DNA of 64,000 nucleotides from Candidatus Nanoarchaeia archaeon. GTDB lineage: Archaea > Nanobdellota > Nanobdellia > Woesearchaeales > GW2011-AR4. Of this stretch, positions 12,106 through 43,583 are shown piece after piece. The translations under genes were made by a program, and so were the position numbers. The DNA is taken from positions 36,495 to 100,494 of the forward strand of contig DATDOM010000093.1 of assembly GCA_035293285.1 (NCBI GenBank), read 5' to 3'. Each line of letters opens with the position of its first letter. Position 1 is the stretch's first letter. The notes below the pieces were generated by a model. It was not told the origin of the DNA, made no database searches, and was given only the letters and a program-made list of their open reading frames with translations.

Positions 12106-12155
12106 TTGAGTAGACATCATTAAATCTTTCTGCTTTATACGTTCCAGCAGGCAAA

Positions 12156-12422: not shown

Positions 12423-12440
12423 ATTTCCTTTAATTCAAAC

Positions 12441-13181
12441 CTATTTCAGATTCTTAAAAGACTTGCTTATTTTTTCATTCCAGAATTCAGGAAGGCTGAA
12501 TGACAGCAACCCTTCAAATTCATCATCCCAGACATAAGTGTATTTTTCCTTGTCATCTTTGTTCTTGAACATTTTTGATGCTTTTTCATACATTTCCTTT
12601 ATTGCCTTTCTTTCAAAAGTTGATTGTAATAGGCTTGGCTCTTTAAACATCAAAGTGTCTGCCAGCCTTAATACATTGACGTCAACCAATGCCGAGTTTT
12701 GGGTTATGATGATTAATGTGAGGTTTTTATGCCTCGCAATTGCCATGAACTTGCTTAATTCCTTGTTCGGGCTTTTCATTGAATCTCGTGACGAGAACAA
12801 AATTGCGCCTTCGTCAATCAATGCTATTGAATTGTTTGGCACGCTTTCAATATTTTCTGACTTTTTTATGCTCCACGGAAGCTTTGCCTCTTCAAAACCT
12901 AAGCAATAGCACTTTCTTTTTGATTTTTTCATGAATAACTCAATTAATTTCATCCCAAAGGCAGTCTTTCCTGAGCCTCTTTTGCCTACTATTAGAATTA
13001 TTAGGCTTGTGTTTAGCAGCTTTTTGTAGAATGTTTCATAGTCTCCTTTCTTTGTTTCTTCAACTTCAAAAGGCTGATAATTAGTGTTTTTCTCTGTTTT
13101 TCTGAAAATGTCCAATATTCCCATGAAAATGACTATATCTGATTGGTATAAAAAGGATTTGGTGAATTTGACTTGTGTCAC
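12441..13181 (-). CDS. AAA+-like P-loop ATPase (IstB/DnaC-like minimal ATPase), hypothetical
   Basis: Walker A VGKRGSGKT, Walker B IALIDEGA ~45 aa later, sensor-1-like LIIITQN. No adjacent transposase. Confidence 0.55.
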   Translation of the reverse strand: MTQVKFTKSFLYQSDIVIFMGILDIFRKTEKNTNYQPFEVEETKKGDYETFYKKLLNTSLIILIVGKRGSGKTAFGMKLIELFMKKSKRKCYCLGFEEAKLPWSIKKSENIESVPNNSIALIDEGAILFSSRDSMKSPNKELSKFMAIARHKNLTLIIITQNSALVDVNVLRLADTLMFKEPSLLQSTFERKAIKEMYEKASKMFKNKDDKEKYTYVWDDEFEGLLSFSLPEFWNEKISKSFKNLK

Positions 13182-13227
13182 AAAAATAAGGGAAAGTTTA
13201 TTAAGAAAATATTAAAGTTATGATATA

Positions 13228-13590
13228 GTGGATAACGATACAACTATAGAAGAATTGAAAAATAAAGTAAAAAAATTCTGTGAAGAAAGAGACTGGGATC
13301 AATATCACAATGCAAAAGATTTAGCTATAGGTATTATAACAGAATCTTCTGAATTACTCGAACATTTTAGATTTAAATCAGAAAAAGAGATTGAAGGGTA
13401 TTTTGAAATTCCAGAAAAGAAAAAAGAAATTTCTGAAGAATTATCTGATATATTATATTTTGTTTTGAGACTATCACAAAAATATAATATAGACTTAACA
13501 ACGGAATTGAGTAAAAAAATTCAAAAAAACAAAGAAAAATACCCTGTTGAAAAATCTAGAGGGTCTAATAAAAAATATGATGAGATTTAA
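13228..13590 (+). CDS. MazG-like nucleotide pyrophosphohydrolase (all-alpha NTP-PPase, DCTPP1/YpjD-like)
   Basis: ELKNKVKKFCEERDWDQYHNAKDLAIGIITESSELLEHFRF ... EELSDILYFVLRLSQKYNIDL matches the MazG-like NTP-PPase EExxE...ExxD pattern; 120 aa. Confidence 0.8.
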   Translation: MDNDTTIEELKNKVKKFCEERDWDQYHNAKDLAIGIITESSELLEHFRFKSEKEIEGYFEIPEKKKEISEELSDILYFVLRLSQKYNIDLTTELSKKIQKNKEKYPVEKSRGSNKKYDEI

Positions 13591-13592
13591 AA

Positions 13593-15587: not shown

Positions 15588-15590
15588 ACT

Positions 15591-16040
15591 TCAATTCTTA
15601 TGCTTAATTTCAATTAAAAACATTCTTCCGTCTGTTGAAAGCAGTTTGATATCAACCAAGTCTTCTTTATGCAGATTGTTAGTCAGTTCTTTTGGAAACC
15701 TAAAAAAGAACGTTTTACCATCATAATTCATGTTTCTTTCTACTGTTATTGTATTTTCATTTAGTAATTGTTTAACTATGAGGAATTTTTCAAATTTCTT
15801 GGCCTGTTCAAAATCAACATATTCTTTTTTGCACGTCTTGCACTGCCAAACATCATAAGCAAACTCAATATGACCATAAGATACTTTTTTGCCTGTCAAA
15901 ACAGTCTTTTTCCCATGGCATTGAAAAGGCCCTTTAAACGAGCTTTCTTCTAACTTGATATTGGCTTCTTGCCCCATATCTCTTGTTTTAAGATTATAAA
16001 ACGGCTCTTTTTCAAGTTCTTGCTGATATTTGGATTTCAT
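15591..16040 (-). CDS. YgiT-type zinc-finger protein (antitoxin-like)
   Basis: CHGKK...(n)...CKTCKK C2C2 arrangement. Overlaps the upstream DUF4258-like gene by 4 nt. Confidence 0.45.
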   Translation of the reverse strand: MKSKYQQELEKEPFYNLKTRDMGQEANIKLEESSFKGPFQCHGKKTVLTGKKVSYGHIEFAYDVWQCKTCKKEYVDFEQAKKFEKFLIVKQLLNENTITVERNMNYDGKTFFFRFPKELTNNLHKEDLVDIKLLSTDGRMFLIEIKHKN

Positions 16041-16297
16041 TTTTTATTATACCTGTTTATTTGCGGTTCTGATGATGGATAAGCCGTTATGACATTTGCA
16101 ATTGGCTCATCATATTTGAATATCATAGTTATGTAACGAACATAGTGTGTTATTGATATGTAAATTTTATCTTCTTGCCTGATAATTTTAGGCTTTCCGT
16201 GTTTAATTGCCTCCCAGAGTTCATCTATTCCTATGCCATGTTTGTATAATATTTTCTCCTGAACGTCCGGACTTATATGCAATTTTAAGTTTTTCAT
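16037..16297 (-). CDS. DUF4258-like small protein (toxin-like partner of the YgiT-ZnF protein)
   Basis: 86 aa, HISPDVQEKILYKHGIGIDELWEAIKHGKPKIIRQEDKIYI resembles the DUF4258 consensus. 4-nt overlap with the downstream ZnF gene, as in TA operons. Confidence 0.4.
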   Translation of the reverse strand: MKNLKLHISPDVQEKILYKHGIGIDELWEAIKHGKPKIIRQEDKIYISITHYVRYITMIFKYDEPIANVITAYPSSEPQINRYNKK

Positions 16298-16320
16298 GGC
16301 AATAAATTTTGTACTTCATA

Positions 16321-16351
16321 TAGTACGCTGAATAGTACGTTTATATAAACC
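16321..16351 (-). promoter_or_regulatory. Promoter/operator region of the YgiT-ZnF/DUF4258 operon with TATA-like box and ACGTAC repeats
   Basis: Minus-strand reading tttatataaacgtactattcagcgtacta: a TATA-like box followed by two (A/G)CGTACT units directly upstream of the 16297 start. Confidence 0.35.
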
Positions 16352-17010
16352 TATCTGACAATTAATGAATTATAACTATGGTTTCCAACAATCAAATGAT
16401 CAAGAACTTTTATTCCAATTAAATCTCCAGTTTCAACAAGCACCCTATTAACTCTGTAGTCTTCATCTGAAGGTTCAACATTTCCTGATGGATGATTATG
16501 AACCAATATAATAGAATTAGCAGAGTTCTTTATTGCTTCCTTAAACACCTCCCTAGGATGAACCAATGAAGAATTCAATGTCCCGATTGAAATAACTTCA
16601 TCTTTGATTATTTTGTTTTTGGAATCAAGAAACACTGCAATAAAATGCTCTTTTTTCAAATCCTTGAGCTTTTCAATATAGTATGAAGCGATATCTGAAG
16701 GGTTTTTAATCACTTTCTCGCAGATTTTGCCTGAATTGACTCTTTTGCTTAGCTCAAATGCAGCAATGATTTTAGCCCCTTTGGCTAAGCCTATGCCTTT
16801 TATTTTCATTAGTTCCTGTAAAGACAGGGAATTAAGGTTTTCAAGCCCAAAACTGGAAATTAGCCTGTTTGATAAATCCAGGACATTTTCTCCTTTGGTG
16901 CCTTTTTCAAGAATCAAAGCAAGCAATTCAGGATCACTAAGGAAGCTAGAATTACTGGATTTTAATCTCTCCCTCGGCCTTTGTTCTAAGGCAATATCTT
17001 TCATCAGCAT
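16351..17010 (-). CDS. radC: RadC-like JAB/MPN-domain protein
   Basis: HhH region (LMKIKGIGLAKGAKI) plus the JAMM motif HNHPSG...D. Confidence 0.85.
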   Translation of the reverse strand: MLMKDIALEQRPRERLKSSNSSFLSDPELLALILEKGTKGENVLDLSNRLISSFGLENLNSLSLQELMKIKGIGLAKGAKIIAAFELSKRVNSGKICEKVIKNPSDIASYYIEKLKDLKKEHFIAVFLDSKNKIIKDEVISIGTLNSSLVHPREVFKEAIKNSANSIILVHNHPSGNVEPSDEDYRVNRVLVETGDLIGIKVLDHLIVGNHSYNSLIVR

Positions 17011-17077
17011 TCTAGTAAGAACATCATAAAACTATTAATAATTGACACTTATAAATTGTATAAAAATACAAAATATC

Positions 17078-17500
17078 CTAATAAAATTCCTCCAAAAACT
17101 CCTTTGGGCTTAGAATCCTTACACCTTTATAATTTTTCAAAGAAAGCAAGTGATTATCTCCGGATATTATAATTGATTTAATTGATAAAGCACAATTTAT
17201 GAATTTATTATCTTCTTCATCATTCAAAACTGCATTTTCATCAAAAGAAGATTTGGTCAAAACTGATTTATCAATAAGATTATCCATAATGAATTTTTTG
17301 TAATCAGCACCAATATATTTTTTGAACAACGGCCTTTCTATAACTTTTTTAATTTCATCTAAAATCTCATATGTTACATAGTTGACAATCTCATCTTTTA
17401 ACAATAACTCGAAGATTTTTGCGGGATTGCCATCACTTGAAATGGCAGCAGATATTATGATATTTGTATCTAAAACTACTTTAACCTTTTCTTGACTCAT
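17078..17500 (-). CDS. PIN-domain protein (VapC-like toxin)
   Basis: VVLDTNIIISA N-terminal acidic motif; 140 aa. Overlaps the upstream antitoxin gene. Confidence 0.65.
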   Translation of the reverse strand: MSQEKVKVVLDTNIIISAAISSDGNPAKIFELLLKDEIVNYVTYEILDEIKKVIERPLFKKYIGADYKKFIMDNLIDKSVLTKSSFDENAVLNDEEDNKFINCALSIKSIIISGDNHLLSLKNYKGVRILSPKEFLEEFY

Positions 17501-17726
17501 TTATCTCTTCCCCAATCTTTTCAGGAGACAATTTTTTTGTATTGTCCCTGAATTTTTTGAATTCCTTAACCAACGAAGTTGTATCCACTTTTTTCATAAC
17601 TATTGTGTTTTTATCAAAGGCACTAACTGCGAATATTGTATTTTCAAGAGCTCCTACTTCTTCCCTTATTTCCTTAGGTATTATGATTTGCCCTCTTTGC
17701 GACATTTTAGCTGTTTCTATGTTCAT
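17481..17726 (-). CDS. AbrB/SpoVT/MazE-family antitoxin
   Basis: MSQRGQIIIPKEIREEVG swapped-hairpin motif; 81 aa. Overlaps the PIN gene by ~20 nt. Confidence 0.6.
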   Translation of the reverse strand: MNIETAKMSQRGQIIIPKEIREEVGALENTIFAVSAFDKNTIVMKKVDTTSLVKEFKKFRDNTKKLSPEKIGEEINESRKG

Positions 17727-17742
17727 TTTGAATCACCAGTTA

Positions 17743-17782
17743 AAAGTACGTTTTACGTATTTATAAACTTTACGTAATATTG
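17743..17782 (-). promoter_or_regulatory. Promoter/operator region of the AbrB-PIN operon with TATA-like box flanked by ACGTAAA repeats
   Basis: Minus-strand reading caatattacgtaaagtttataaatacgtaaaacgtacttt: tttataaa flanked by ACGTAAA units, 17-55 nt upstream of the antitoxin start at 17726. Shares the ACGTA(A/C) unit with the other TA promoter. Confidence 0.35.
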
Positions 17783-17849
17783 TAAACTTATCACTATTGG
17801 TAAGCTATTTGATTTAATATTAATACTAAATTCTTATAATTTCTATAAA

Positions 17850-18215
17850 TTAAACATTCTTTGCAGAAACGGCAATACTAGTATTGGCACCAAAATCCTG
17901 TTTATTTTTTATTCCCAAATTTCTTTCAACCTGTTCATCCACCACAGCCCAGTAAAACTCTATAAACTTCTGAACTTTTTTATTTTTTATGTTAAGCCTG
18001 TACATTTGCGCCCTGCCTACTTTTCTTACAAGAGTTATCCACTTATCTTTCAAAAGCTCCTTTTTTAGCTGCTTGACTGAAGGATAGCTTACATTTGAGA
18101 ACTTGGCAATATCTTTAAGTGAATAATCAAAATCCTGAGAAACTATCAGAAAATCAAGTACCTTGTTTTTCGGACTGCTCCCTTCTATTTCCAAAAATGC
18201 GGATTTTTCTGTCAT
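17850..18215 (-). CDS. Winged-helix transcriptional regulator (MarR/ArsR-like)
   Basis: LKDIAKFSNVSYPSVKQ...LVRKVGRAQMYRLN helix-turn-helix plus wing. Confidence 0.45.
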   Translation of the reverse strand: MTEKSAFLEIEGSSPKNKVLDFLIVSQDFDYSLKDIAKFSNVSYPSVKQLKKELLKDKWITLVRKVGRAQMYRLNIKNKKVQKFIEFYWAVVDEQVERNLGIKNKQDFGANTSIAVSAKNV

Positions 18216-18287
18216 AATTTGTGATAAAACTCCTAAATATAAAAAGCTTTCTTTTTATCCTATAAGGGATAAATTTTTATCTCTTAC

Positions 18288-18584
18288 TTATAGCATCAAT
18301 ACCATTGGAATTATGGAGCAGCTTCCTGTTTCTTTAGTAATCTCCTTTATTTTATCAAATCTGTCCATGTTAAGATAATACTTCCATCCATGCTCTTTTT
18401 TCTTTTTTTGGCAGATGTTTTGCTTGACTAATGATTCAAGCACAACTTTTCCTATTTCTTTGCTTGGAAGGCCGGAAAGCACATTTTCCCCATACATTGA
18501 GCCTTTGCCATAGCAAGTTGATTTGTGAAGCTTTCTGACTATGAACCTGCTGTATTTGACATAATCACTTTTGTGAACTTTCAT
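18288..18584 (-). CDS. Hypothetical small protein
   Basis: 98-aa ORF of plausible size with no recognised motif. Confidence 0.3.
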   Translation of the reverse strand: MKVHKSDYVKYSRFIVRKLHKSTCYGKGSMYGENVLSGLPSKEIGKVVLESLVKQNICQKKKKEHGWKYYLNMDRFDKIKEITKETGSCSIIPMVLML

Positions 18585-18696
18585 ATAAAATTACACTAAA
18601 AGAATTATCAATTTATTAAAACTCACTCTATAAAATATAAATTTTTACAGGATTTTTGCTTTAGAAACCTTTTTAAACCCTCCATTCATTCTTGGT

Positions 18697-18813
18697 ATTG
18701 GACGGTCATAGGGGCCTGGTTCACCCGATCCCATTCCGAACTCGGCAGTTAAGAAAGCCTCCGTTTCCAATTGTACTGCACTTACGTGCGGGAACCTGGG
18801 AAAGCTGTCCACC
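18697..18813 (+). rRNA. rrf: 5S ribosomal RNA
   Basis: GGTCATAG...CCGATCCCATTCCGAACTCGGCAGTTAAG...GTACTGC...GGGAA matches the universal 5S loop/helix motifs. Helix I forms between 5' TGGACGG (18699-18705) and 3' CTGTCCA (18805-18811). An oligo-T run follows. Ends are approximate to +/-5 nt. Confidence 0.85.
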
Positions 18814-18820
18814 TTTTTTT
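18814..18820 (+). terminator. Oligo-T tract immediately after the 5S rRNA (archaeal-type terminator)
   Basis: TTTTTTT directly 3' of the 5S helix I. Confidence 0.45.
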
Positions 18821-18870
18821 CAAATTTTTGAAACTCGTTTGAATTGTTCTCTAGCTATCTTATATTCAAT

Positions 18871-18941
18871 TCTCACCCTAATGGGGTGAGTTATGCGGGT
18901 TTTGTGAACAATGTATGCCGAGCTAATGGCGAGGCGTAACC
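18871..18941 (+). repeat. 71-nt conserved intergenic element, family 1, copy 1
   Basis: tctcaccctaatggggtgag...acaatgtatgccgagctaatggcgaggcgtaac. Shares ...ACAATGTATGCCGAGC.A.TGGCGAGGC... with the copies at 20661 and 26991. Confidence 0.6.
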
Positions 18942-18975
18942 AAATAAGGATTTAATATAGAATAACTCCAAACAA

Positions 18976-19737
18976 TCAAATTTTCTTCCCAACAAAAATA
19001 AACCCGCCCGAAAGAACTCTCTTAAGAATTCCCCTGTAATAATCATCCTCTTCCTTGTTCAAAAAAATCTTTTTCACTATTTTTAGCCCTGCATTTTCAA
19101 AAAGCGAGCGAAATTCATCAAAGCTGAACCAGTGCATATATGTTTTATTCAGGATTTTGCTGTGATAAAAATAATAATCTCCAATTTCTAGGTCTTTTTC
19201 CCTAAAAAAATAAGTCTTGAGAAGCCAGGAGTACATGTCAGGCTCTTTTATCCCTGCTAATCTGTTATGAGCATGGACAATAACAAATCCATTTTTTTTT
19301 GCAACCCTGAAAAGCTCGTTCATTGACTTTTGTCTTTTGGCTTTAGTCGGAATGCATCCAAAGCTTGAATACATCGAAATAACATAATCAAATGAATCAC
19401 TTTTTATTTTCGACAAGTCTGAAATGTCATAATTGTAAAGAACTGCCTTTATCCTGTTTTTCTTCAGGGTTTTTGCAGATACTTTAATCATGAATTTATT
19501 ATAGTCATTGCCATAAACCTTAAACCCTTTTTTGGCAAAGTGCACCAAATGCCTGCCTGTTCCCATTGTTGCATCAAAAAGCGATCCCTTTTTTCTTAGC
19601 AAAGAATCAAGAAACCTTGTGTCAAAGTCAAAATGCCCTTTCACATCTTCTTCATAATCAAGGTAGTTTTCTGCGTATTCCTTGCTGTTTTTTTCCCGCC
19701 TGACTGCATTTTCAATCCTCTTACTCAGCTTTGCCAT
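18976..19737 (-). CDS. Class I SAM-dependent methyltransferase
   Basis: LFDATMGTGRHLVHFAKKGFKVYGNDYN motif I/II region. Confidence 0.65.
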   Translation of the reverse strand: MAKLSKRIENAVRREKNSKEYAENYLDYEEDVKGHFDFDTRFLDSLLRKKGSLFDATMGTGRHLVHFAKKGFKVYGNDYNKFMIKVSAKTLKKNRIKAVLYNYDISDLSKIKSDSFDYVISMYSSFGCIPTKAKRQKSMNELFRVAKKNGFVIVHAHNRLAGIKEPDMYSWLLKTYFFREKDLEIGDYYFYHSKILNKTYMHWFSFDEFRSLFENAGLKIVKKIFLNKEEDDYYRGILKRVLSGGFIFVGKKI

Positions 19738-19739
19738 TC

Positions 19740-20537
19740 TTAGAAATTAAGCAAATCCTTTTTTGAATGTATGTGCATTTCCTTTTCAGAGCTTAAGTGC
19801 CCGTTTAGAAACCCTTTCTCTGCAAGTAGTGGAAAAACGTCAAACTCGAGGCTTGCGCCGCTGTAATCAAAGATATGGGGCTCAGTCACAAAAATAGGGG
19901 AAAAGACAAGATAGATGTCTGATTTTTTTGGCTTTTGGGTAAATGCAAGGACTTTTGAGCCTTCAACTTTCACAGTGCCTTTCTCGCTTGGCCTGGACGA
20001 TGTTGTAAGCATTATTGTTGTTATTGCACCCTGCCTGACGTGGTCATTCCAAAGCTGCTCTACATTGATTTTACTGAATATGATGTCTCCATACACTACC
20101 AGAAAATTTGAATTTATTTTTCCTTTCAAAAGCCGTAATGAGTCTGCAGTTCCTTTTGACGACTTTTCCTCAATGTAGTTAATCTTTACGCCGTATTCAT
20201 TGCCTTCTTTTAGCATCTCAAAAATTCTTGTAAGCAGGTTATGCCTGGCAACTATGTAGATTGTCTTAAAGTTAGTCTCGCGCAGTTTTTTTAGGGCAAG
20301 CTCAATCACCGAGGAATTTTTTATTTTTGCTGTGGGCCTGTATTCATCGCCTGAAATCCTCAAGTGGCCTTCGTCGCCTCCAAGCAAAATAACTGCAGTC
20401 TTGTTCTCGCCTAGCGAGTTATTGACAAGATGCTCGATTGCCTGCGAGCGGTTTCTGATGTATATGTTGTCGACAATTGCGTCTATATCCCTTAAAGTGT
20501 TCTCGTTTATTGTTATTGATATTTTTGACTTGACCAT
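19740..20537 (-). CDS. Nucleotidyltransferase (NTP_transferase family) with N-terminal ribbon-helix-helix domain
   Basis: N-terminal RNRSQAIEHLV (CopG/RHH-like), then VILLGGDEG...GTADSLR...VVYGDIIF sugar-phosphate nucleotidyltransferase-like core. Confidence 0.55.
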   Translation of the reverse strand: MVKSKISITINENTLRDIDAIVDNIYIRNRSQAIEHLVNNSLGENKTAVILLGGDEGHLRISGDEYRPTAKIKNSSVIELALKKLRETNFKTIYIVARHNLLTRIFEMLKEGNEYGVKINYIEEKSSKGTADSLRLLKGKINSNFLVVYGDIIFSKINVEQLWNDHVRQGAITTIMLTTSSRPSEKGTVKVEGSKVLAFTQKPKKSDIYLVFSPIFVTEPHIFDYSGASLEFDVFPLLAEKGFLNGHLSSEKEMHIHSKKDLLNF

Positions 20538-20601
20538 TTTATTAATCTTAAATCTTTTGACTTTTTCTTAAACCCTTCGCTTCGCTCTATTATCTTCACT
20601 C

Positions 20602-20631
20602 GGCAAATTTTGACTAGCACTAAAATTTGCC
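20602..20631. promoter_or_regulatory. 30-bp palindromic site (10-bp arms GGCAAATTTT / AAAATTTGCC, 10-bp spacer), candidate operator
   Basis: Perfect inverted repeat 65-95 nt upstream of the RHH-nucleotidyltransferase gene start (minus strand), in the divergent promoter region shared with ugd. Confidence 0.4.
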
Positions 20632-20660
20632 TCGATTTATTACACCAATTTCAATTAACT

Positions 20661-20725
20661 TTCGCTCCAATGAAGGCGAATGTGCGAATTGCTAACAATG
20701 TATGCCGAGCAATTGGCGAGGCCTA
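20661..20725 (+). repeat. Conserved intergenic element, family 1, copy 2 (more diverged)
   Basis: ttcgctccaatgaaggcgaa...acaatgtatgccgagcaattggcgaggc. Hairpin arms differ from the other copies but remain complementary (ttcgc/gcgaa). Confidence 0.5.
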
Positions 20726-20895
20726 TCTAAAAGTCGTCACAAAGACGGCTTATTTAACTCATAATTTGTCCTAACTTAAAAACCCAAATACGACGGATTT
20801 AAACTAATTCTAAACCTACAAATTAAATTTCAAAATTGGTGGCATAAAGTAGGATAATGGTAAGATATTTAAATACATTGTGCATTTTCAGGTGC

Positions 20896-22197
20896 ATGAA
20901 AATAGCAGTGGCGGGGGCAGGGTATGTCGGGCTGGTTACAGCTGCGTGCTTTTCAGAGCTTGGAAACAATGTAATCTGCGTTGACATTGACAAGTCAAAG
21001 ATAGACAAGCTTAACCATAACAAGATTCCTTTCTATGAGCCTGGGCTTGACAAGCTTGTTGCAAAAAACAAGAAGGCAAAGAAACTAAGCTTTTCAACAA
21101 ACTTAAAAGACGCAATAAAAAAATCAGAGGTAATATTCATCTGCGTCGGAACTCCTCCAAAGGACAACGGCGAAGCTGACCTAAGCTATGTCGAGGATGT
21201 TGCAAGGACAGTTGCCGAAGTAATGGATTCATACAAGATAATTGTTGAAAAAAGCACGGTCCCTGTAAAGACAGGCGAAAAAGTTGCAAAATCAATCAAG
21301 GCCTATAATGTTCACAAGGTTGATTTTGACGTCGTGAGCAATCCTGAATTCTTGCGAGAAGGCAGTGCAATCGGGGATTTCATGAACCCTGACAGGGTAG
21401 TCCTGGGATGTGAAAGCGAAAAAGCAAAAAAAATACTTCAAAAGCTTTACAAGCCGCTTAATGCAAAGATTATTTTTACCGATATCAAGAGCGCGGAAAT
21501 CATAAAGCACGCTTCAAACTCGTTTCTTGCAACAAAAATCTCGTTCATCAATGCAATTGCAAACATATGCGAGCTTGCAGGCGCTGACATTGAAAAAGTT
21601 GCAGAGGGAATAGGCTGCGACAAAAGAATAGGAAAGTCATTTTTGAACGCAGGGATAGGATACGGCGGCTTTTGTTTTCCAAAAGATGTCGAGGCGTTTA
21701 TCAGAATTTCTGAAAAGATGGGATACGACTTTAATCTTTTAAAGGCAACACAGGAAATAAACAAGAACCAGGTAAAAAATTTCATCAAAAAGATTGAAAA
21801 GGCACTCTGGATTGTAAAGGGCAAAAAGCTTGCAGTCTTGGGGCTTGCATTCAAGCCGAACACTGATGACATGAGATTTGCACCGTCAATCGATATAATA
21901 AATGAGCTTTCAAAAGAGGGAGCAATAATAACTGCATATGACCCAAAGGCAATGGAGCTTGCAAAAAAAATATTTAAGGGAATAAACTACTCAAAAAACC
22001 CTTATGACGCTTTAAAAGATGCCGACGCAGTTCTTATACTAACGGAATGGGAAGAATTCAAAAAAATGGATCTTTCAAAAGTGAAAAAACTCATGAAGCA
22101 CAACCTGATTGTTGACGGCAGGAATATTTACAATCCGGAAGAAATGAAAAAACTCGGATTTTCTTACATAAGCATAGGAAGAAAGGAAGTGGCCTGA
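20896..22197 (+). CDS. ugd: UDP-glucose 6-dehydrogenase
   Basis: MKIAVAGAGYVGL Rossmann start, GFCFPKD catalytic Cys motif, ~430 aa. ORF-track start 20857 adds 13 unlikely residues. Confidence 0.85.
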   Translation: MKIAVAGAGYVGLVTAACFSELGNNVICVDIDKSKIDKLNHNKIPFYEPGLDKLVAKNKKAKKLSFSTNLKDAIKKSEVIFICVGTPPKDNGEADLSYVEDVARTVAEVMDSYKIIVEKSTVPVKTGEKVAKSIKAYNVHKVDFDVVSNPEFLREGSAIGDFMNPDRVVLGCESEKAKKILQKLYKPLNAKIIFTDIKSAEIIKHASNSFLATKISFINAIANICELAGADIEKVAEGIGCDKRIGKSFLNAGIGYGGFCFPKDVEAFIRISEKMGYDFNLLKATQEINKNQVKNFIKKIEKALWIVKGKKLAVLGLAFKPNTDDMRFAPSIDIINELSKEGAIITAYDPKAMELAKKIFKGINYSKNPYDALKDADAVLILTEWEEFKKMDLSKVKKLMKHNLIVDGRNIYNPEEMKKLGFSYISIGRKEVA

Positions 22198-22928
22198 TGG
22201 AAGCGATAATACTCGCTGCAGGATATGCAACAAGGCTTTATCCACTCACAAGAGACACTCCAAAGCCGCTTTTGAAAGTTGCAGGAAAGCCAATAATTGA
22301 GCACATCATAGGCAAGATTGAACAAATAAAAAACCTGGGCAGAGTCCACATAGTCACAAACGACAAGTTTGAAGGTAATTTCAAAAGCTGGCTTTCATCA
22401 TTTGAAACAAATATCCCAATTTCTATTTATAACGACGGCACAAAGACGAATGAAGACAGGCTTGGGGCAATCGGAGACATACAGTTTGCACTTGACAGCA
22501 ATCAAATTGATGATGACATTCTTGTAATTGCCGGAGACAACCTTTTTGAGCTTTCGCTTGCTGATGCCGCAAATTATTTTAAGAAAAAAAAATCAAACGT
22601 TATAGTGCTTTATGATGTCAAAAGCAGTGAGCTTGCAAAGATGTATGGTGTTGTTGAGACAGAAAACGGAATTGTTGCCAATTTTGAGGAAAAGCCATTG
22701 GCGCCAAAATCAACGCTTGTCTCGACAGGAATCTACTTCTTTACAAAAAAGACAGTGCCTTTAATAAAAAAATACCTTTTGCAGGGAAACAGCGCTGACA
22801 AAAGCGGCAGCTTTGTCGAATGGCTTCACAAAAGGGACAAAATTTATACATTTTCAACCGACAAAAAATGGTTTGACATAGGTGATTTGGAGCAGCTAAA
22901 ACTTGCGGACAGGACTTACAGGCAATGA
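22197..22928 (+). CDS. Sugar-1-phosphate nucleotidyltransferase (RmlA/GalU-like)
   Basis: [14 protein letters not shown]...KPLL N-terminal signature of NDP-sugar pyrophosphorylases. Confidence 0.65.
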
Positions 22929-23860
22929 AAATGAAAAATGTTGTTGTAACCGGCGGCGCAGGATTCATAGGAAGCCACCTTTGCGAATTTCTTCTGGATA
23001 AAGGGCACAAAGTTACTGCTGTTGACAATCTCATAACCGGCTCATTGAAAAACATTGAGCATTTAAGGTCAAACAGGAATTTTAATTACATTCACCATGA
23101 TGTGAGCAAGCACATAGTTATTGACGGGAAAGTTGATTTAATCATGCATTTTGCAAGCCCTGCAAGCCCTATTGACTACCAGAAAATTCCAATCCAGACA
23201 TTAAAAGTAGGGAGCCTTGGAACGCACAATTCGCTTGGACTTGCCCTTGCAAAAAAGGCAAAATTTCTGCTTGCATCAACTTCAGAAGTTTACGGCGACC
23301 CTCTTATCAATCCGCAGGTTGAATCATACTGGGGAAATGTCAACCCTGTCGGATTAAGGGGCTGCTATGATGAGGCAAAAAGATTTTCTGAAGCATTGAC
23401 AATGGCTTATCACAGGATACATAAACTGGACACAAAGATTGTGAGGATTTTCAACACTTACGGCCCAAGGATGAGAAAAGAAGACGGCAGGGTCGTTCCA
23501 AACTTCATAATGCAGGCATTGCAAAACAAGCCTCTTACTGTTTATGGCAAAGGAAAGCAGACAAGAAGCTTTTGCTATGTGAGCGACTTAATTGACGGAA
23601 TTTACAGGCTTGCAAACTCAAGGCTAAACAATCCTGTAAACATTGGAAACCCTGAAGAGCACACAATACTTGAATTTGCGCAAATAATTAAAAAAATGAC
23701 GAAAAGCAAATGCAAAATTAAATTTGAAAAGCTTCCCCAGGACGACCCTCACGTAAGATGCCCTGACATAACCCTTGCAAAAAAAGAGCTCAAGTGGGAG
23801 CCAAAAATAACATTAAACGACGGCATATCAAAAACCATAGAATGGTTCAAAAACAACTAA
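22925..23860 (+). CDS. uxs: UDP-glucuronate decarboxylase (UDP-xylose synthase)
   Basis: [38 protein letters not shown] are UXS hallmarks; 311 aa. Confidence 0.85.
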
Positions 23861-24147
23861 AAGCGGAAAAATCGAAAGCCAGGGCAGTCTCGTCATTTGT
23901 GCTCGGGCTTGGGTTCTGGATACCTCTTCTTAATTTCATACTCGGCGCGCTTGCGGTTTACCACGGAATGAAGGCACTGCGTAACATAAAAAATGAGCCC
24001 AAAAAATATTCAGGAAAGGCTTTTGCAGTAACTGGAATAATTCTTGGCTGCTTGGTTTACTTCCTTTACCTTGTAGGAATTGGAATGTGCCTTTACGGGT
24101 TTAGGGATGTGTGCAGCAACATAGGGCTTGAATTTTTGAATAAATGA
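23842..24147 (+). CDS. Small membrane protein (DUF4190-like); start uncertain
   Basis: [25 protein letters not shown] plus a second TM segment. ORF-track start 23794 overlaps uxs by 66 nt; the alternatives are ATG 23842 or GTG 23899. Confidence 0.35.
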
Positions 24148-24162
24148 GACAAAAGAATTATC

Positions 24163-24813
24163 TTATTTCTTCTTAGGCACTTTTTCCCAGTCTTCGAGGA
24201 ATTTCTTTATTCCTGAATCAGTCAGGGAATGGCTAAAAAGCTGCTCAAACACTGAATAAGGCAAAGTTACAATGTCTGCGCCTATTTTTGCGGATTCAAG
24301 AACGTGGACAGGATTTCTGATTGATGCTACAAGTATCTGTGTAGTGAACTTGTAATTATTGTAAATGAGCCTTATATCCTTTATCAAATCCATCCCGTCA
24401 AATCCCTGGTCATCCAATCTTCCAACAAAAGGGCTTATGATAAAAGCGCCTGACTTTGCTGCAAGGAGAGCCTGGTTTGCAGAAAAGCACAAAGTTACAT
24501 TAACTCTTATGTTTGCCTTTGTGAGCTTTTGGCATGCTTTAAGGCCTTCAACAGTCAACGGGACTTTCACAATTATGTTTTTTGCAATCTTTGCAAATTC
24601 CTTTCCTTCTTTCACCATGCCGTCGCAATCAAGTGCTACAGCTTCTGCGCTCACAGGCCCTTTTACAATTGAGCATATCTCTTTGAGAGCTTCGTTGTAA
24701 TCACGCCCTGCCTTCATAATCAGTGACGGGTTTGTTGTGACGCCGTCCAAAACTCCCCAATCTGCCACTTTTCGAATTTCATCTGTTTTCGCTGAATCAA
24801 TAAAGAGCTGCAT
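24163..24813 (-). CDS. tal: Transaldolase / fructose-6-phosphate aldolase (short TalC/Fsa type)
   Basis: [31 protein letters not shown]; 216 aa. Confidence 0.8.
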
Positions 24814-24828
24814 TTTAACTCACCTTTG

Positions 24829-25851
24829 CTAATTTTCTTTTAAAATACCATTAATACCGTTTTCATTCTTCCTTTCCTTGTAATCATGGTATTTAAGTAA
24901 TCTTTCTCGTCTTTGCTTATTTATCCTATCTTTATTTCTATGATAATAATCCTTGTTTATAATATTTACTTTTTCTTTATTTAAAACCCTTCTTTTCCTC
25001 ATACTTTCTCTGCCACTTTGACGAGATTTTTGAGGATTGTTCCAATAGTAATCAACCCTCTTTTTGTTTATAATAACTCTATGAGACTCCCTATATTTCT
25101 TGGCCCTATTCAATGCTTTATTGTGATTAGTGTAATACCACTCCTTCCTGATGGTTTTGTATCTTTTATCTTCGCTTTCCATTAATTCTTTGTTTTTCTG
25201 TGAGTAATGTCCTAATTTATAAACCATGGATTTCGGAACAAAATTTTTCATTAAATTAAGAAATTTTTCAGTTTCATTTTTATTAAAAGTTAATTTATAA
25301 TAAGTCCTATATTCATTTCGGTATTTCTTGATTTCTTTAATGACTTTTGCACTTATGTTCCATTTCTTCAAAAAATACTCTTTAATTAGTAAATTCTCTT
25401 TTTGAGTAAATCCTAAAGTTGCTATTGAGCAGGATTTATCCCTTACACAATAGGTTCCATCATCACAGTACCAAACAGCGAGACCTAATTTATCCAAGTT
25501 TTCCAAAAAATCAAGATTTATAATTTTTAGCCATTTTCTTCTTGGCAGTTTGGATTTAATATAAATTAGGTTATGCAATTCTGTTAAGATTTCAGAATAA
25601 TTAGTTCGAAGTCTATATATAAAATATTTTTCCCCATTTTTTCTGTAACTGTAATTAACTTTGAAATATTGTTTTAAAATATCGACTTTCCAGAAAAAAT
25701 ATTCTTTTTGTTTTAAATTGTGGCAGCATGAAAAACCTGCATTTTTGGAGCCTTTTTCCAAGCAACCGTCGCCAAGCAAGCTGCCTAATAAAACTTGTTT
25801 TACATCCTCACTAATGCTAAACCATCCTAATTCAATTTTTTGATTGCGCAT
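24829..25851 (-). mobile_element. Free-standing double-motif LAGLIDADG homing endonuclease with basic repetitive C-terminal tail
   Basis: Motif 1 LLGSLLGDGCLEK and motif 2 LAVWYCDDGTY. The C-terminal ~120 aa is K/R-rich with three imperfect (D/E)(W/Y)YY..N..K....R repeats. Confidence 0.7.
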
Positions 25852-25906
25852 TTAAGTCCGAAGCCTAAGAATTAGTTTAAATATTATAGGTGAAGATGTC
25901 CAGTGG

Positions 25907-26266
25907 TTATTTTTTGAGTTTTCTTTTATAATAAATATTTTTACCGAACCAACTTATTTTTTTAATCTCAAATTCTAGTAATTTATCACCCTTTATTGCC
26001 AAAAAGAGTCCTTCGTATAAATCATCGACATATTTTGAATATTGATTATTTGTATAGATTATATAAATTAAAAAAAGGTAAGCTATGATAACTATCCAAG
26101 AGTTTAATGCTTCTGGTTTGATTAAACCTACAGAAAACACGAATACAATTATGCCCCCTATAATTCCCAACCTTTGATAAAAACCGCTTGTAGACCAATT
26201 ATCAAGTGATTCTATGTATTTATGCCTTAATTCCATAATGAGCTTCTCTTTATCTTCTTTTTTCAT
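25907..26266 (-). CDS. Hypothetical small membrane protein
   Basis: Two predicted TM helices (IIGGIIVFVFSVGL; IVIIAYLFLIYIIY). No motif recognised. Confidence 0.3.
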   Translation of the reverse strand: MKKEDKEKLIMELRHKYIESLDNWSTSGFYQRLGIIGGIIVFVFSVGLIKPEALNSWIVIIAYLFLIYIIYTNNQYSKYVDDLYEGLFLAIKGDKLLEFEIKKISWFGKNIYYKRKLKK

Positions 26267-26287
26267 TATTTCACTTAATTCTTTCCA

Positions 26288-26716
26288 TTAAACGCTTACC
26301 AGTACCGCGCCACCGACAATGAGAAGCGCGCCCGAAATCACCCTTATCATCTGGGAAGCGTCAGGAATCTCTTTTAAAAAAATTATGCCAAGAACGACTG
26401 CAACCAGTGTGTTTGTGTTGTAAATCGGTGCAAGCCGCGAGACATCTGCTTTTTGAGATATTGCAATAGCCACAGCCAAAAATCCTATTGCCCAAAGCAT
26501 TCCTGCACCCAAAGCAAGTGAGCTTGATTTCCATTCAAACTCAAAATTCCGGTTAAAGAGCATGAAAACGCCAAATACAATTACAATTCCAAGGCCCATG
26601 AGAAAGCTCCCATAATACGGCGACATATTGCCTTTTTGCTGGGCGAATTTGTAAATTACAGTGTTTATGCCAAAGACAAGTGCGGCAAATAATCCATAAT
26701 AAACCCAGTTTTCCAT
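26288..26716 (-). CDS. EamA/DMT-superfamily small membrane transporter-like protein
   Basis: Four hydrophobic helices, EamA-like half-transporter appearance; 142 aa. Confidence 0.5.
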   Translation of the reverse strand: MENWVYYGLFAALVFGINTVIYKFAQQKGNMSPYYGSFLMGLGIVIVFGVFMLFNRNFEFEWKSSSLALGAGMLWAIGFLAVAIAISQKADVSRLAPIYNTNTLVAVVLGIIFLKEIPDASQMIRVISGALLIVGGAVLVSV

Positions 26717-26990
26717 AACTCTCTAAGATTACTGGTTGGATTTAAAGGTTTTGATAAGTATTTACCTTACTTAGAATTTAATAATCTTAAATACGCTCCG
26801 CGAAAGATAGGCGGCCTGCATTGGGCCGCATATACGGATGAATCAAAGTTACATTGAAATTGTTTGATTCATCCTGACGTTTAGACACATAAAACCTAAC
26901 TGAAGAATAGTGTGTCTAAACGCATTAAGTTGATTCGTTGCATTGCGAAGGTTGCTTCTTGGAATTAGTTAAAATCTGAAAGCAATTTAA

Positions 26991-27061
26991 TCTCGCCCAA
27001 ATGGGGCGAGTTGTGCGGGTTATGCGCACAATGTATGCCGAGCTAAATGGCGAGGCGTAAC
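26991..27061 (+). repeat. 71-nt conserved intergenic element, family 1, copy 3
   Basis: tctcgcccaaatggggcgag...acaatgtatgccgagctaaatggcgaggcgtaac. Hairpin ctcgccc/gggcgag carries compensatory changes relative to copy 1 (ctcaccc/gggtgag). Confidence 0.6.
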
Positions 27062-27152
27062 TATAATCAAAATTATTTTAGTTATTTAATGTAGGTCTTA
27101 AATAAACTCTAGATTATTTAAAGTTGTAATTTCAATATTTTAAAAATAAAAT

Positions 27153-28100
27153 TCAAGCTTTTCTCTTAACCAATTTTTCAGTCTCTTCTGCGATTGAATC
27201 TGCGCTTAAGCCGTATTTTTTGTAAAGTTCAGTTGGATTTCCTGATTCTGCGTATTTGTCCATAACACCAATTCTTTTCATTATGCACGGATAGTTTTCA
27301 CCCAGTACCTCGGCAACCGCGCTTCCAAGCCCTCCTATTATGTTGTGGTCTTCAGCAGTTATCACGCAGTTTGTTTTTTTTGCAAGCTCGATTATAAGTT
27401 CTGAATCAATCGGCTTTATCGTTGAGACGTTTACAATGTAAACATCAAGACTTCTTCCTTTTAAAATATCATAAGCTTTCAATGCCTCGTGAACCATTGT
27501 GCCTGATGCAAAAATGACTGCATCTTTTCCTTTTTTGAGAACTTCAGCTTTTCCTATTTCAAATTTGTAATCATCACCGTGTATTACAGGAACTGCTGTC
27601 CTGTGCACTCTCATGTAAGAAGGGCCGTTGTAATCAGCCAATCCCAAAACCATTTTTTCAGCTTCTACAGCATCAGCAGGCTGAAGCACAATCATATAGG
27701 GAAGGGAGCGGTAAATTGCAACATCTTCAATTGCCTGTGCGCTCTTGCCGTCTTCGCCAGTTGCAATTCCTGAATGGCTTCCGGTTAATTTAACGTTAAT
27801 CTTGTTTCTAGCGACAATGTTTCTGACAAACTCAAAAGCCCTCTCAGAGAACACTGCAAATGTGCTTGCATAAGCTATTTTTCCTGACTGTGCAAGTCCT
27901 GCGGCAACGCCTATCATATTCTGCTCGGCAATTCCCATGTGAAAATACCTGTCAGGAAATTCCTTTCCAAACAATTCTGCCTTTGTTGAGTCTCCCAAAT
28001 CAGCATCTACAACAACGACATTCTTGTTTTTCTTTCCAAGCTCAAGCAGGCCCTTACCGTGCCCGTCCCTTGTTGCAATTTTTTTTATTTCTTCCGGCAT
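27153..28100 (-). CDS. tktB: Transketolase, C-terminal subunit (pyrimidine-binding + C-terminal domains)
   Basis: HMGIAEQNMIGVAAGLA and TGEDGKSAQAIEDVAIYRSLP motifs; 315 aa. Confidence 0.85.
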   Translation of the reverse strand: MPEEIKKIATRDGHGKGLLELGKKNKNVVVVDADLGDSTKAELFGKEFPDRYFHMGIAEQNMIGVAAGLAQSGKIAYASTFAVFSERAFEFVRNIVARNKINVKLTGSHSGIATGEDGKSAQAIEDVAIYRSLPYMIVLQPADAVEAEKMVLGLADYNGPSYMRVHRTAVPVIHGDDYKFEIGKAEVLKKGKDAVIFASGTMVHEALKAYDILKGRSLDVYIVNVSTIKPIDSELIIELAKKTNCVITAEDHNIIGGLGSAVAEVLGENYPCIMKRIGVMDKYAESGNPTELYKKYGLSADSIAEETEKLVKRKA

Positions 28101-28113: not shown

Positions 28114-28419
28114 TCAGAAAATTTGTTTTACGTGACCTACACTAAATGCAGACACTATTGGTGATGTAGTTTTAAATTTCTCCCTTTCAACCATGTATTT
28201 TAGATTAGAGCCCTGCATGTTTTTAATGAGGTCATCAATTTTTATTATGTGCACCATCTGATTTTCCTTTATAACTATTTGCAAATCAAATTCTTGCTTA
28301 TCCAACTCATTCTCCACCGGGCAAATTTTCTTCACTTTAAATCCCCCGGCTATATGGTTCCGGATATGATATACTGAATTTGATTTGGTTATTGCAAAAA
28401 TGTCATTCATTATTTTCAA
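28114..28419 (-). CDS. Hypothetical protein between the two transketolase subunit genes
   Basis: 101-aa ORF filling the gap between tktA and tktB on the same strand. No recognisable motif. Confidence 0.3.
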   Translation of the reverse strand: MKIMNDIFAITKSNSVYHIRNHIAGGFKVKKICPVENELDKQEFDLQIVIKENQMVHIIKIDDLIKNMQGSNLKYMVEREKFKTTSPIVSAFSVGHVKQIF

Positions 28420-28422
28420 CCC

Positions 28423-29268
28423 CTAATTAAAAGATTTTATGTCGATACTCTCAATTTCTTCAATTGCTTTTTTGTATTCTTCGTCATTCGGGGCTTTGCC
28501 GTGGAATTTGTGGTTTAGCTCCATGAATGAAACTCCTTTTCCTTTTATTGTGTTTGAGATTATCATTGTGGGCTTCCCATTTTTAGTTTCGCTGGCAGTA
28601 TCAAGCGCTTTTACAACTTCATCCATGTCGTGGCCGTTTATGCTTATCACATTCCAGCCAAATGACTTCCATTTTGACTCTGCATCGCCTAAGTCCATAA
28701 CGTCAACTGTTTTTCCCGTTTCCTGAACCTGGTTTTTGTCAAGGATTGCTATTAAATTATCAAGCTTGTAAAACGGAGCTGCCATTGATGCCTCCCACAC
28801 AGAGCCTTCCTGTGCCTCTCCATCTCCAATCATCACATAAACTTTCGAACTTTTTTTATCAAGCCTGTTTGCAAGAGCAACACCGACTGAAAAGCAGATT
28901 CCCTGCCCTAGCGAGCCTCCGGCAAACTCAATTCCCGGAGTGTTTAGTTCAGGATGTCCCTGGAGCATTCGGTTGATTTTTCTGAAACCGTCAAGCTCCG
29001 ATTTTGGAAAATATCCCTTGTTTGCCAATACAACATATAATCCCGGGCTTGCGTGGCCCTTGCTCAAAATGAACCTGTCCCTGTTTTCTGACTTCGGATT
29101 TTTCGGGTCTACATTTAATTTATAGAAGTAAAGCGCAGTAAGCATGTCAATTTCGCTTAACGAGCCTCCTGGATGGCCGGACTGGGCCTTGTAAATCACG
29201 TCAATAATCTCTTTTCTAAATGATTTTGCTTTTTCTTTTAATTTGAGTATTAGTTCCCTGTCTGCCAT
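28423..29268 (-). CDS. tktA: Transketolase, N-terminal subunit (ThDP-binding)
   Basis: SGHPGGSLS, GSLGQG, MIGDGEAQEG ThDP-binding motifs; 281 aa. Confidence 0.85.
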   Translation of the reverse strand: MADRELILKLKEKAKSFRKEIIDVIYKAQSGHPGGSLSEIDMLTALYFYKLNVDPKNPKSENRDRFILSKGHASPGLYVVLANKGYFPKSELDGFRKINRMLQGHPELNTPGIEFAGGSLGQGICFSVGVALANRLDKKSSKVYVMIGDGEAQEGSVWEASMAAPFYKLDNLIAILDKNQVQETGKTVDVMDLGDAESKWKSFGWNVISINGHDMDEVVKALDTASETKNGKPTMIISNTIKGKGVSFMELNHKFHGKAPNDEEYKKAIEEIESIDIKSFN

Positions 29269-29310
29269 TGGTTTTGGATGTTTTACTGCTTATTTATACT
29301 TTTTGTTTAG

Positions 29311-29470
29311 TGCGTTGGCAGCGTTCAAAATCTCGCTCTGCTCGGGTTATTGCCAAGCTCGGCTCCTTCATCTCAAATTACGGGCTGACATTGCCCGGAT
29401 GGCGCATCCCCTTTGTCAGCATTCCATCCGTTCAAATTACGGCCTCGCAAAAAGGTAATAACCTACATTT
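29311..29470 (+). repeat. ~120-nt conserved structured element, family G, copy A (with extra outer stem)
   Basis: Inner terminal stem gggttattgcc (29336-29346) / ggtaataacc (29446-29455). Core CTCGGCT...TCAAAT...GGCTGACATTGCCCGGATGGCGCATCCCCTTTGTCAGC...TCCGT.CAAAT...GGCCTCGCAAAA. Outer 13-bp stem cagcgttcaaaat / attttgaacgctg. Ends 48 nt before the wzx start. Confidence 0.65.
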
Positions 29471-29517
29471 TGAACGCTGCCATTTAGTGCGTCATAACCT
29501 TTTTATAGGCAGGGATT

Positions 29518-43313: not shown

Positions 43314-43386
43314 TTCGTTAATAATTATTCTAACTAAATTAAATTAATCATTTTAAACTTTATTTGGCTTCGGTAAAAATCTATTT

Positions 43387-43507: not shown

Positions 43508-43583
43508 ATAGTATACTGATGGTTTTTTGTTGCCTGTGTGGCAATCTCTTTGAAAAGATTTAAAAACGAAGTGGACAAACTGA

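Follow-up and report, generated by a model that had tools for sequence, protein, structure and literature searches.

A lineage-restricted family of structured intergenic repeats in a nanoarchaeal genome

Introduction

Why should one short hairpin-bearing sequence recur in the spacers of a genome that has so little room between its genes? The question is raised by a 64,000-nt stretch of a Candidatus Nanoarchaeia genome (contig DATDOM010000093.1, positions 36,495 to 100,494; hereafter the window, in whose numbering all coordinates are given), in which a sequence-only reading had picked out three copies of a ~71-nt intergenic element with a covarying hairpin and an invariant 3' block. The genomes of DPANN archaea are tiny and densely packed, and their non-coding DNA is almost uncharted. 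We find that these copies belong to a family, here called family 1, that is real, new and lineage-restricted, while its general kind is already known, and that sits in intergenic spacers of a Rifle-type Woesearchaeota/Nanoarchaeia population. With a probability of about one half, we read it as a lineage-specific, non-autonomous, structured repeat resembling miniature inverted-repeat transposable elements (MITEs) and the hairpin-forming doublets of repetitive extragenic palindromes (REPs) known as REPINs, with an invariant tandem-G·A hairpin serving as recognition site for a protein encoded elsewhere.

Results

Sequence, alignment and a covariance model all bear out the three copies. The 16-mer ACAATGTATGCCGAGC occurs exactly three times in the window (at 18908, 20695 and 27028), where shuffled sequence, even with as many as 3 mismatches tolerated, yields 0.35 matches on average, and a MAFFT alignment of the copies runs through an invariant AACAATGTATGCCGAGC and a gap of 3-4 nt into TGGCGAGGC. 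A covariance model, R1, built from 15 family members and searched against the window with filters off, scores them at 74-80 bits (E ~1e-19 to 1e-20), the next best score in the 64 kb being 10 bits; it has no match in coding sequence of the window, and 20 kb more of the same contig hold no further copy. All three lie on the + strand. Copy 1 (18870-18940; 77.2 bits) is a short form made up of the core only, copy 2 (20659-20727; 79.8 bits) is likewise a short form, and the core unit of copy 3 (26990-27061; 74 bits) is the 3' end of a long form. Copies 1 and 3 are 88% alike and copy 2 is 90% like L034, one of the metagenome loci, for which we use L numbers throughout; two subfamilies thus coexist in one genome.

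The core unit, ~71-85 nt in length, comprises a covarying hairpin of 6-8 bp, a variable stretch and an invariant block of ~30 nt; the GC content of the element is 45-56%, against 38% for the window, and conservation ends sharply after GGCGAGGCSTAA, with unrelated sequence beyond. In helix 1 (UUCGCC.../...GGCGAA, 6-8 bp), 100% of the cells are paired and 3 pairs are changed on both sides, and 0/500 shuffles reach the observed covariation score, in an alignment that was fitted to the model and so favours such a result. The differing but complementary arms seen earlier are present in copies 1 and 3 (CUCACCC/GGGUGAG and CUCGCCC/GGGCGAG), and copy 2 has UUCGCU/GGCGAA, a 6-bp stem including one U-G pair that belongs to the UUCGCY...GGCGAA subfamily. 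A tentative 4-bp helix, P2, pairs (G/A)U(G/A)(C/U) with GUAU and is always compatible, by one-sided transitions only. The third helix, P3 (GCC-[GA]-GCU / GGC-[GA]-GGC), is invariant and hence outside the reach of a covariation test. Both its strands read CGAG around a tandem G·A internal loop, CGAG/CGAG being the classic context for tandem sheared G·A pairs, and its terminal loop varies from 3 to 5 nt among members.

Taken over all three helices, the + strand has 49 G·U wobble cells and not a single A·C cell, an asymmetry partly built in by choosing the structure on the + strand; it argues that the fold belongs to that strand, as RNA or as single-stranded DNA. Judged from these patterns of change, the hairpins appear to be under selection, and strand-specifically so. 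Loss of the structure in other genomes, which the sequence-only reading had named as a sign that it was mistaken, is not what we see: the fold is kept in copies on other contigs.

Some details need adjusting. Copy 1 does adjoin the 5S rRNA gene, at a distance of 57 nt from it and its T7 run, not the 65 nt given before. The near-identical 30-nt block stands for the window copies, while its first two bases (AC) vary outside the window. Copy 3 was described as a ~71-nt element, which fits its core, the core being only the 3' part of a ~280-nt composite at 26785-27061; copy 2 likewise holds up as a core and does not stand alone, since two other hairpin modules flank it.

How far does the family extend? 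A metagenome scan with the pattern AATGTATGCCGAGC-N2-6-GGCGAG returned 76 loci. About 60 represent one gut-bacterial coding sequence that contains the 24-mer by chance, and ~9 further loci (L019 among them) were set aside as other chance matches. True members occupy 14 loci, namely 13 new sequences and L046, which is identical to copy 1. Ten members stem from metagenome Ga0209542, in which the organism studied here is present as well, and others from Ga0209640, C687J35174 and Ga0315293; several family members on short contigs sit within ~130 nt of a contig end. Scans of the GTDB representative genomes gave no true member (no match to the block pattern, 4 chance bacterial matches to the helix-1 pattern), nor did those of IMG/VR, where chance matches fall in phage coding sequence only. 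Within what was searched, the family is found only in this lineage. A divergent member in the grpE-dnaK spacer of a Ga0315293 contig (L029:762-852, - strand; 37 bits with R1) retains AGAUAG and the complete 3' block, has another hairpin, and encloses all of this in a 7-bp closing stem, GUGAAUU/AAUUCAC, and may be a compact ancestral or sister form.

The long form, represented by copy 3, L007, L028, L048, L057 and L067, reaches ~140-230 nt further upstream, for a total of ~215-280 nt, and adds to the core a conserved head and two more hairpins, in the order head, S1, S2, variable linker, core. The head of copy 3 (26785-26833, +) consists of a TATA-like TCTTAAATA, CGCUCCGC-GAA-AGAUAG and the S1 hairpin GCGGCC/UGCAUUG/GGCCGC (26811-26829). 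Its consensus, a TTTAAAATA-like box followed by YGCUCCGC-N3-AGAUAG and S1, is kept in L007, L028, L048 and L067; the contig of L057 starts within S1 and so holds only part of it. A conserved TAAAATA stands directly 5' of the long form. The closing pair of S1 changes from U-G to U-A in L048, and S2 (UUCG/UUGCAUUG/CGAA, 26934-26949, + in copy 3) is doubly compensated, two adjacent pairs being C-G in 3 sequences and U-A in 3 (CCCG/CGGG vs UUCG/CGAA). When the left end is compared with the reverse-complemented right end, copy 3 and L048 show a similarity that 0/500 and 1/500 shuffles, respectively, attain. TAYGCUCCGC agrees with reverse-complemented GGCGAGGCSUA in 7-8 of 10-11 places. Such likeness suggests that the left end of the long form may be a degenerate inverted copy of the right-end block, as in a REPIN doublet or a MITE.

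Copy 3 also carries a nested insert of ~90 nt (26835-26925, +) with two perfect 12-bp hairpins, I1 and I2, which the other five long forms lack and of which no second copy occurs in any DNA examined; it may be another mini-element or a local duplication-derived structure. Further pairings were tried and rejected. For a 5'/3' terminal stem of the long form and a lower stem of P3, the G/C position after GGCGAGGC covaries with neither partner, and for a kissing or long-range pairing of the S1 and helix-1 loops, predicted by RNAalifold, the loops are invariant and several copies have lost the complementary loop.

Other hairpin repeats accompany family 1. Downstream of copy 2 stands an optional module (GUCGUC ACAAA GACGGC, 20733-20749, +), which recurs behind the core of L007 and L044 as GUCGCC UCUGA GGCGAC; one of its pairs is compensated, C-G having become U-A. 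Immediately 5' of copy 2 is the hairpin repeat F3 (CUCGGCAAAUUUU-loop-AAAAUUUGCCUCG, 20599-20634, +), of which a 94-98% identical copy lies in L057 (234-281), 80 nt downstream of the family-1 copy there, and a related one upstream of the family-1 copy in L013 (~1130-1170); F3 is co-oriented with its neighbouring family-1 copies, upstream of them in two cases and downstream in one. A second repeat family of ~150-190 nt, F2, with a conserved hairpin GGGCUGACAUUCCCC...GGGG...CUUGUCAKC, fills four window spacers (29300-29480, 43343-43523, 49866-50010 and 62356-62536, all +). In three of these spacers the TATA box of a glycosylation gene on the + strand follows downstream of the copy, and in the fourth no TATA box could be placed; partial copies occur at L111:17512-17586 and 17742-17786 and at L066:593-696. 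A likeness between the 5' part of F2 (AAAAUnCGCUCCGCUCAGGUUAGCGG) and the head of the long form of family 1 suggests that these modular elements make up a superfamily. Altogether, most spacers longer than ~180 nt in this genome are occupied by two or three GC-rich hairpin repeat families.

Where do the copies sit with respect to genes? Many copies inside coding sequences would have spoken for a simple dispersed repeat, as the sequence-only reading had pointed out; 16/16 copies are intergenic, and none overlaps an open reading frame (ORF) of at least 80 aa. They occur in all four orientations relative to neighbouring genes, with upstream neighbours divergent in 7 cases and co-directional in 4-5, and downstream neighbours co-directional in 6 and convergent in 8. 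Read from their sequences with no library search, the neighbours of outside members appear to include grpE/dnaK, endonuclease III, nikR, a glutaredoxin-like gene, a vWA protein, a CDP-alcohol transferase and a peptidase, and none is orthologous to a window gene. Within the window, copy 1 ends 35 nt from the stop of a convergent methyltransferase gene (18976-19737, -), copy 2 lies between the divergent nucleoside triphosphate (NTP) transferase (-) and ugd (+) genes, and copy 3 has the 3' end of the transketolase C-terminal-subunit gene on one side and the EamA promoter on the other. Short forms have neither a TATA-like box nor an oligo-T tract at a fixed distance, so that the terminator once proposed lacks its expected tract after the hairpins.

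The ugd product beside copy 2 has its best matches, apart from the organism's own protein, in Woesearchaeota, and the host is a DPANN archaeon (a Nanoarchaeia/Woesearchaeota metagenome-assembled genome); the element being archaeal, bacterial promoter and terminator logic does not apply. Typical gene promoters here have an archaeal TATA box ~21-27 nt 5' of the start codon, a distance that suggests short or absent leaders. The ugd box, at 20866-20875, is 21 nt 5' of the ATG at 20896 and downstream of copy 2, which therefore does not lie in the ugd leader. With the other members beside unrelated genes in four orientations, the earlier idea of a regulator-binding cassette finds no support either: family 1 does not look like a regulator of the adjacent UDP-sugar or pentose-phosphate genes.

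Relatives lack the element at the corresponding places. Those with ugd 76-79% identical keep the order NFACT / NTP-transferase, then ugd-NTP-transferase-epimerase / flippase, with a divergent spacer between NTP-transferase and ugd of 29-60 nt vs 319-358 nt here, and R1 has no match in 12 related ugd loci. In relatives with EamA 74-75% identical, EamA adjoins transaldolase and neighbour genes lie 6-33 nt upstream of it; R1 has no match in these loci or in a short contig of an 85% relative. Among close strains, copy 3 with its 436-nt spacer is present in same-species contigs from three other samples, and three further contigs from other samples end inside the copy 3 element, as expected of a repeat. 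The three window copies had been said to bracket the UDP-xylose/transaldolase segment. The blocks inserted with respect to relatives are 12.1-19.7 kb and ~23.9-29.5 kb, not the stretch from copy 2 to copy 3, and on this comparison of gene orders the bracketing looks like coincidence.

Does the element belong to a class already catalogued? Rfam 15 has no match to it at the gathering threshold, nor at E up to 10 over 18600-27300. A tRNA, split tRNA or tRNA-like RNA was rejected, ARAGORN finding none and a T-arm being absent. C/D box sRNAs are recognised by boxes C (RUGAUGA) and D (CUGA), C'/D' boxes ~12 nt apart and a K-turn; UGAUGA occurs in 3/15 copies (UGAUG in a fourth) and CUGA in 2/15, the two lie 13 nt apart in a few metagenome copies, and the window copies have neither. 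For H/ACA RNA, ACA is unconserved and a pseudouridylation pocket absent; for a K-turn or K-loop, the 3-nt bulge is missing from P3, whose GA/GA loop is symmetric (2x2); and for group II intron domain V, the AGC triad and 2-nt bulge are absent and the length is wrong. A dif/Xer site was dismissed because only TGCGCACAATGTAT of copy 3 resembles E. coli dif, the other copies differing and the site not being palindromic, and a small ORF (MYAE...) starting in the block was judged non-coding, as the 3-5-nt loop variation shifts frame and stop. Complementarity to 5S rRNA, as partner or origin, amounts to 7 nt (UGCCGAG/CUCGGCA), which is chance level; CAATG/CATTG, considered as a protein site, is no more frequent than expected in AT-rich DNA; and a riboswitch-like cis leader is at odds with the variable orientation and position, the unrelated neighbours and the place of copy 2, 5' of the TATA box of ugd. 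For C/D sRNAs, tRNAs, Rfam families, riboswitch-like leaders and IS605 ωRNAs alike, the defining features are lacking.

The window itself is a dense gene cluster for cell-surface glycosylation, with tiny spacers except for the repeat-bearing ones, and ARAGORN finds no tRNA or tmRNA in it. Its sole Rfam match at the gathering threshold is the 5S rRNA gene at 18698-18813, an orphan followed by a T7 run, with no 16S or 23S gene in the 64 kb. This gene lies inside a ~7.6-kb block (12106-19739) that syntenic relatives lack and that holds defence-like genes for an nSTAND3/Zot-like NTPase, a MazG-like protein, a Schlafen-type helicase, RadC and a PIN domain protein. Free-standing homing-endonuclease-like genes are found at 24829-25851 (-), 25907-26266 (-), 57690-58877 (+) and 58864-59265 (-). 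In relatives EamA directly adjoins transaldolase, whereas here a LAGLIDADG_2 ORF and a 119-aa ORF are inserted between the two. A LAGLIDADG_3 ORF overlaps an HNH ORF in the 57690-59265 region; in the relative L079 a LAGLIDADG_3 ORF also adjoins the NTP-transferase gene. Separate genes encode the N- and C-terminal subunits of transketolase, and a ~100-aa ORF of unknown function stands between the two (27153-28100, 28114-28419 and 28423-29268, all -); with transaldolase and EamA they form a block inserted, compared with relatives, between the epimerase and flippase genes. Two pairs of tandem paralogues have ~80% DNA identity: 733-1238 vs 2471-2973, a short-chain dehydrogenase and the dehydrogenase half of a methyltransferase-dehydrogenase fusion, and 39232-39394 vs 41043-41205, two thiamine-diphosphate enzymes.

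Discussion

What kind of element is family 1? Its multiple intergenic copies, indifference to context and orientation, subfamilies, modular mosaics with F2 and F3 and nesting, together with its absence from the syntenic spacers of relatives, the assembly breaks and the partly inverted ends, fit an element of the REP/REPIN-MITE kind. On this reading the units would have spread, and may still be spreading, by means of a protein encoded elsewhere in the genome, whose target would be the single-stranded, strand-specific form of the invariant block and of its inverted partner and which would resemble an HUH/Y1 transposase of the IS200/IS605 or REP-associated tyrosine transposase (RAYT) type acting on hairpin ends. 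Selection for strand-specific hairpins would favour such a single-stranded (Y1/HUH) intermediate over a MITE moved by DDE cut-and-paste, and the invariant tandem-G·A hairpin is a natural candidate for the recognition site. The short copies could then be seen as singlets, or right halves; inserted units would persist as spacer DNA between promoters and gene ends; and RNA transcribed from them, if any, would arise as a by-product or serve a secondary function, for example as a stable 5' or 3' stem-loop.

Several observations weigh against a mobile repeat. Pfam finds no transposase, TnpA/TnpB, reverse transcriptase or integrase in the 64-kb window, nor any OrfB, TnpB or Y1 domain there, hence no cognate Y1 transposase within it, and neither the window nor the other loci examined hold an autonomous parent insertion sequence (IS) with the same ends. 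Flanks of 15 copies, compared by eye, reveal no demonstrable target-site duplication: a TA stands on both sides of 4/5 long forms and a TAAAAT pair in L007, and these flanking positions are conserved between copies and so are not target-site duplications. Copy 3 shows no presence/absence polymorphism among near-identical strains, being fixed in 4 samples including the source assembly. The account of REP features in PMC6006769 gives as a hallmark GT[AG]G placed 0-2 nt 5' of the hairpin foot; GTAG or GTGG is absent before helix 1 and P3 on either strand, the feet reading AAC|UUUCGCC and, on the - strand, GUUAC|GCCUCGCC or UUAG|GCCUCGCC. The end-to-end inverted similarity of the long form is not significant in L028 (103/500 shuffles) or L007 (96/500). 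The TTTAAAATA-like box keeps a fixed position before the head in 5/5 long forms with upstream sequence, which fits a transcribed gene. Finally, as the scan pattern required the block, its invariance among the metagenome members is partly by construction; conservation free of that bias is seen in the three window copies and, in 16/16 sequences, in the flanking T before GGCGAG and the GC after it.

The box brings up the alternative that we take most seriously, tentative as it is: an independently transcribed family of structured small-RNA genes, in which a long form of ~190-280 nt would be made from its own TATA box, starting near S1, with variable middle helices and an invariant 3' domain bearing a protein-binding tandem-G·A hairpin, and in which short copies would be 3'-domain-only paralogues or pseudogenes. 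For the long form a small RNA is possible: the conserved box resembles those of ugd, ugd2 and the NTP-transferase gene in this genome, wobbles fall 49:0 on the + strand, helix 1 and S2 carry compensatory changes, the insertions between conserved helices vary in size as in many structured RNAs, GC reaches 49-56% vs 38% in the window, and copy 3 folds at z = -6.4. The opposite strand folds about equally well, however (z = -6.7). Most copies are short forms, and these have no promoter-like box at a constant distance; neither at syntenic sites of related genomes nor anywhere in 12+5 related loci is the element conserved, the proposed 5'/3' terminal stem shows no covariation, and the conserved GCTCCGC-N3-AGATAG would fall, unusually, between TATA box and start site. 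A more specific version, which we hold to be a little less probable again, would make the long form the gene of an undescribed archaeal structured RNA of ~200-280 nt, the scaffold or guide of a DPANN-specific ribonucleoprotein (RNP), with a TATA promoter of its own, a hairpin at the 5' end, interchangeable helices in the middle and an invariant 3' domain with the CGAG/CGAG tandem-G·A hairpin, docking a dedicated protein that the short copies, as derivatives of the 3' domain alone, would titrate or share.

The remaining explanations have less to recommend them. A cis-acting punctuation module of RNA or DNA (terminator, insulator or 3'-end stabiliser), as proposed for bacterial REPs and bacterial interspersed mosaic elements (BIMEs), would suit the 8/14 copies just past the stop of a convergent gene, the 4-5 just past a co-directional or 5S rRNA gene, the place of copy 3 between a gene end and a promoter, and the stable GC-rich hairpins within AT-rich spacers. 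It is unlikely all the same, as orientation to flanking genes is inconsistent and about half of the copies lie between divergent promoters, the oligo-T tract that signals archaeal termination is at no fixed distance, relatives manage with 29-60-nt spacers that lack the element, and in most convergent cases the structured strand is not the read-through strand. Could the units be right-end remnants of IS200/IS605 elements, that is, orphan TnpB ωRNA/reRNA scaffolds whose end is the block and whose guide is the DNA beyond? The sharp end of conservation after GGCGAGGCSTAA, the subterminal hairpins with strand-specific structure and the TAAAATA 5' of the long form, which could be a target-adjacent (TAM-like) motif, would agree, and archaeal ncRNAs associated with IS1341/TnpB are on record, as far as the accounts in PMC4615843 and PMC12558985 go. 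We rate this as quite improbable, with no tnpB or tnpA in the window (Pfam) or, by inspection, among ORFs beside members on short contigs, and no member overlapping an ORF 3' end. Known ωRNA scaffolds, moreover, are much longer than the 71-nt unit. Least probable of all is a double-stranded binding-site cassette for a regulator of the adjacent nucleotide-sugar and pentose-phosphate genes, which the distribution largely refutes: the three window copies do lie together within 8.2 kb, inside a glycosylation gene cluster, and the block is pseudo-palindromic, but other members flank unrelated housekeeping genes, relatives with the same cluster lack the element, the P3 loop ranges from 3 to 5 nt, and compensatory changes and one-strand wobbles point to a single-stranded fold.

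Why does such a family matter? We know of no REPIN-type hairpin-repeat system described in an archaeon, and our full-text literature searches found no such element described for DPANN archaea. If family 1 is REPIN-like, a reduced symbiont genome would be expected to hold a single-strand transposase, either domesticated or active; should it be a family of RNA genes, it would represent a new archaeal RNP. Either way, these repeats break metagenome assemblies of the lineage and offer a ready marker for strain typing, and interest in them will rise if transcription or a cognate protein is shown.

Comparison with known systems places the structured repeat that we favour among several others. Yeast mitochondrial GC clusters and Rickettsia palindromic elements (RPEs) are GC-rich hairpin mini-repeats in the spacers of AT-rich compact genomes with free-standing LAGLIDADG genes, a setting like that of the window with its two LAGLIDADG genes and one HNH gene; they have no sequence relation to family 1, the mechanism of their own mobility is unclear, and RPEs insert into coding sequence whereas family 1 does not. 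IS200/IS605 ends, the MITEs derived from them known as palindrome-associated transposable elements (PATEs), TnpB ωRNAs and, on the account in PMC4615843, archaeal sense overlapping transcript RNAs (sotRNAs) share with family 1 strand-specific subterminal hairpins and a sharp 3' boundary, and neither IS200/IS605 ends nor family 1 have clear terminal inverted repeats or target-site duplications. Family 1 differs from them in having no associated tnpA or tnpB, in being much shorter and in its left and right hairpins, which are inverted and not direct. With MITEs, including archaeal ones, it shares a size of ~70-280 nt, non-coding, multi-copy intergenic spread, ends that seem imperfectly inverted in some of the long copies, insertions nested within it and breaks in assemblies; it departs from them in that no target-site duplication or parent IS was found, that most copies are 'half' elements and that its internal hairpins covary, which a MITE moved by a DDE transposase does not need.

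The closest likeness is to REP, BIME and REPIN elements. Like these, as their features are set out in PMC6006769, family 1 is a short, GC-rich, imperfect palindrome of intergenic DNA in multiple copies and subfamilies (here 16 copies, 0 ORF overlaps, GC 0.45-0.56 vs 0.38), occurring as singlets and, it seems, as linker-separated inverted doublets and in mosaics with other motifs, with hairpins kept by compensatory change. REPs are mobilised by RAYT (TnpA-REP) Y1 transposases, whereas family 1 has no identified cognate transposase; a REP is one palindrome of 20-40 nt, whereas family 1 is a three-helix module of ~71 nt with an invariant tandem-G·A hairpin and no GT[AG]G tag; and the hosts differ, the REP-associated class-2 subclasses shown in PMC6006769 being bacterial and family 1 archaeal. 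Sharing part of what defines REPs and part of what defines MITEs, family 1 works most like a REP/REPIN system without being a member of it.

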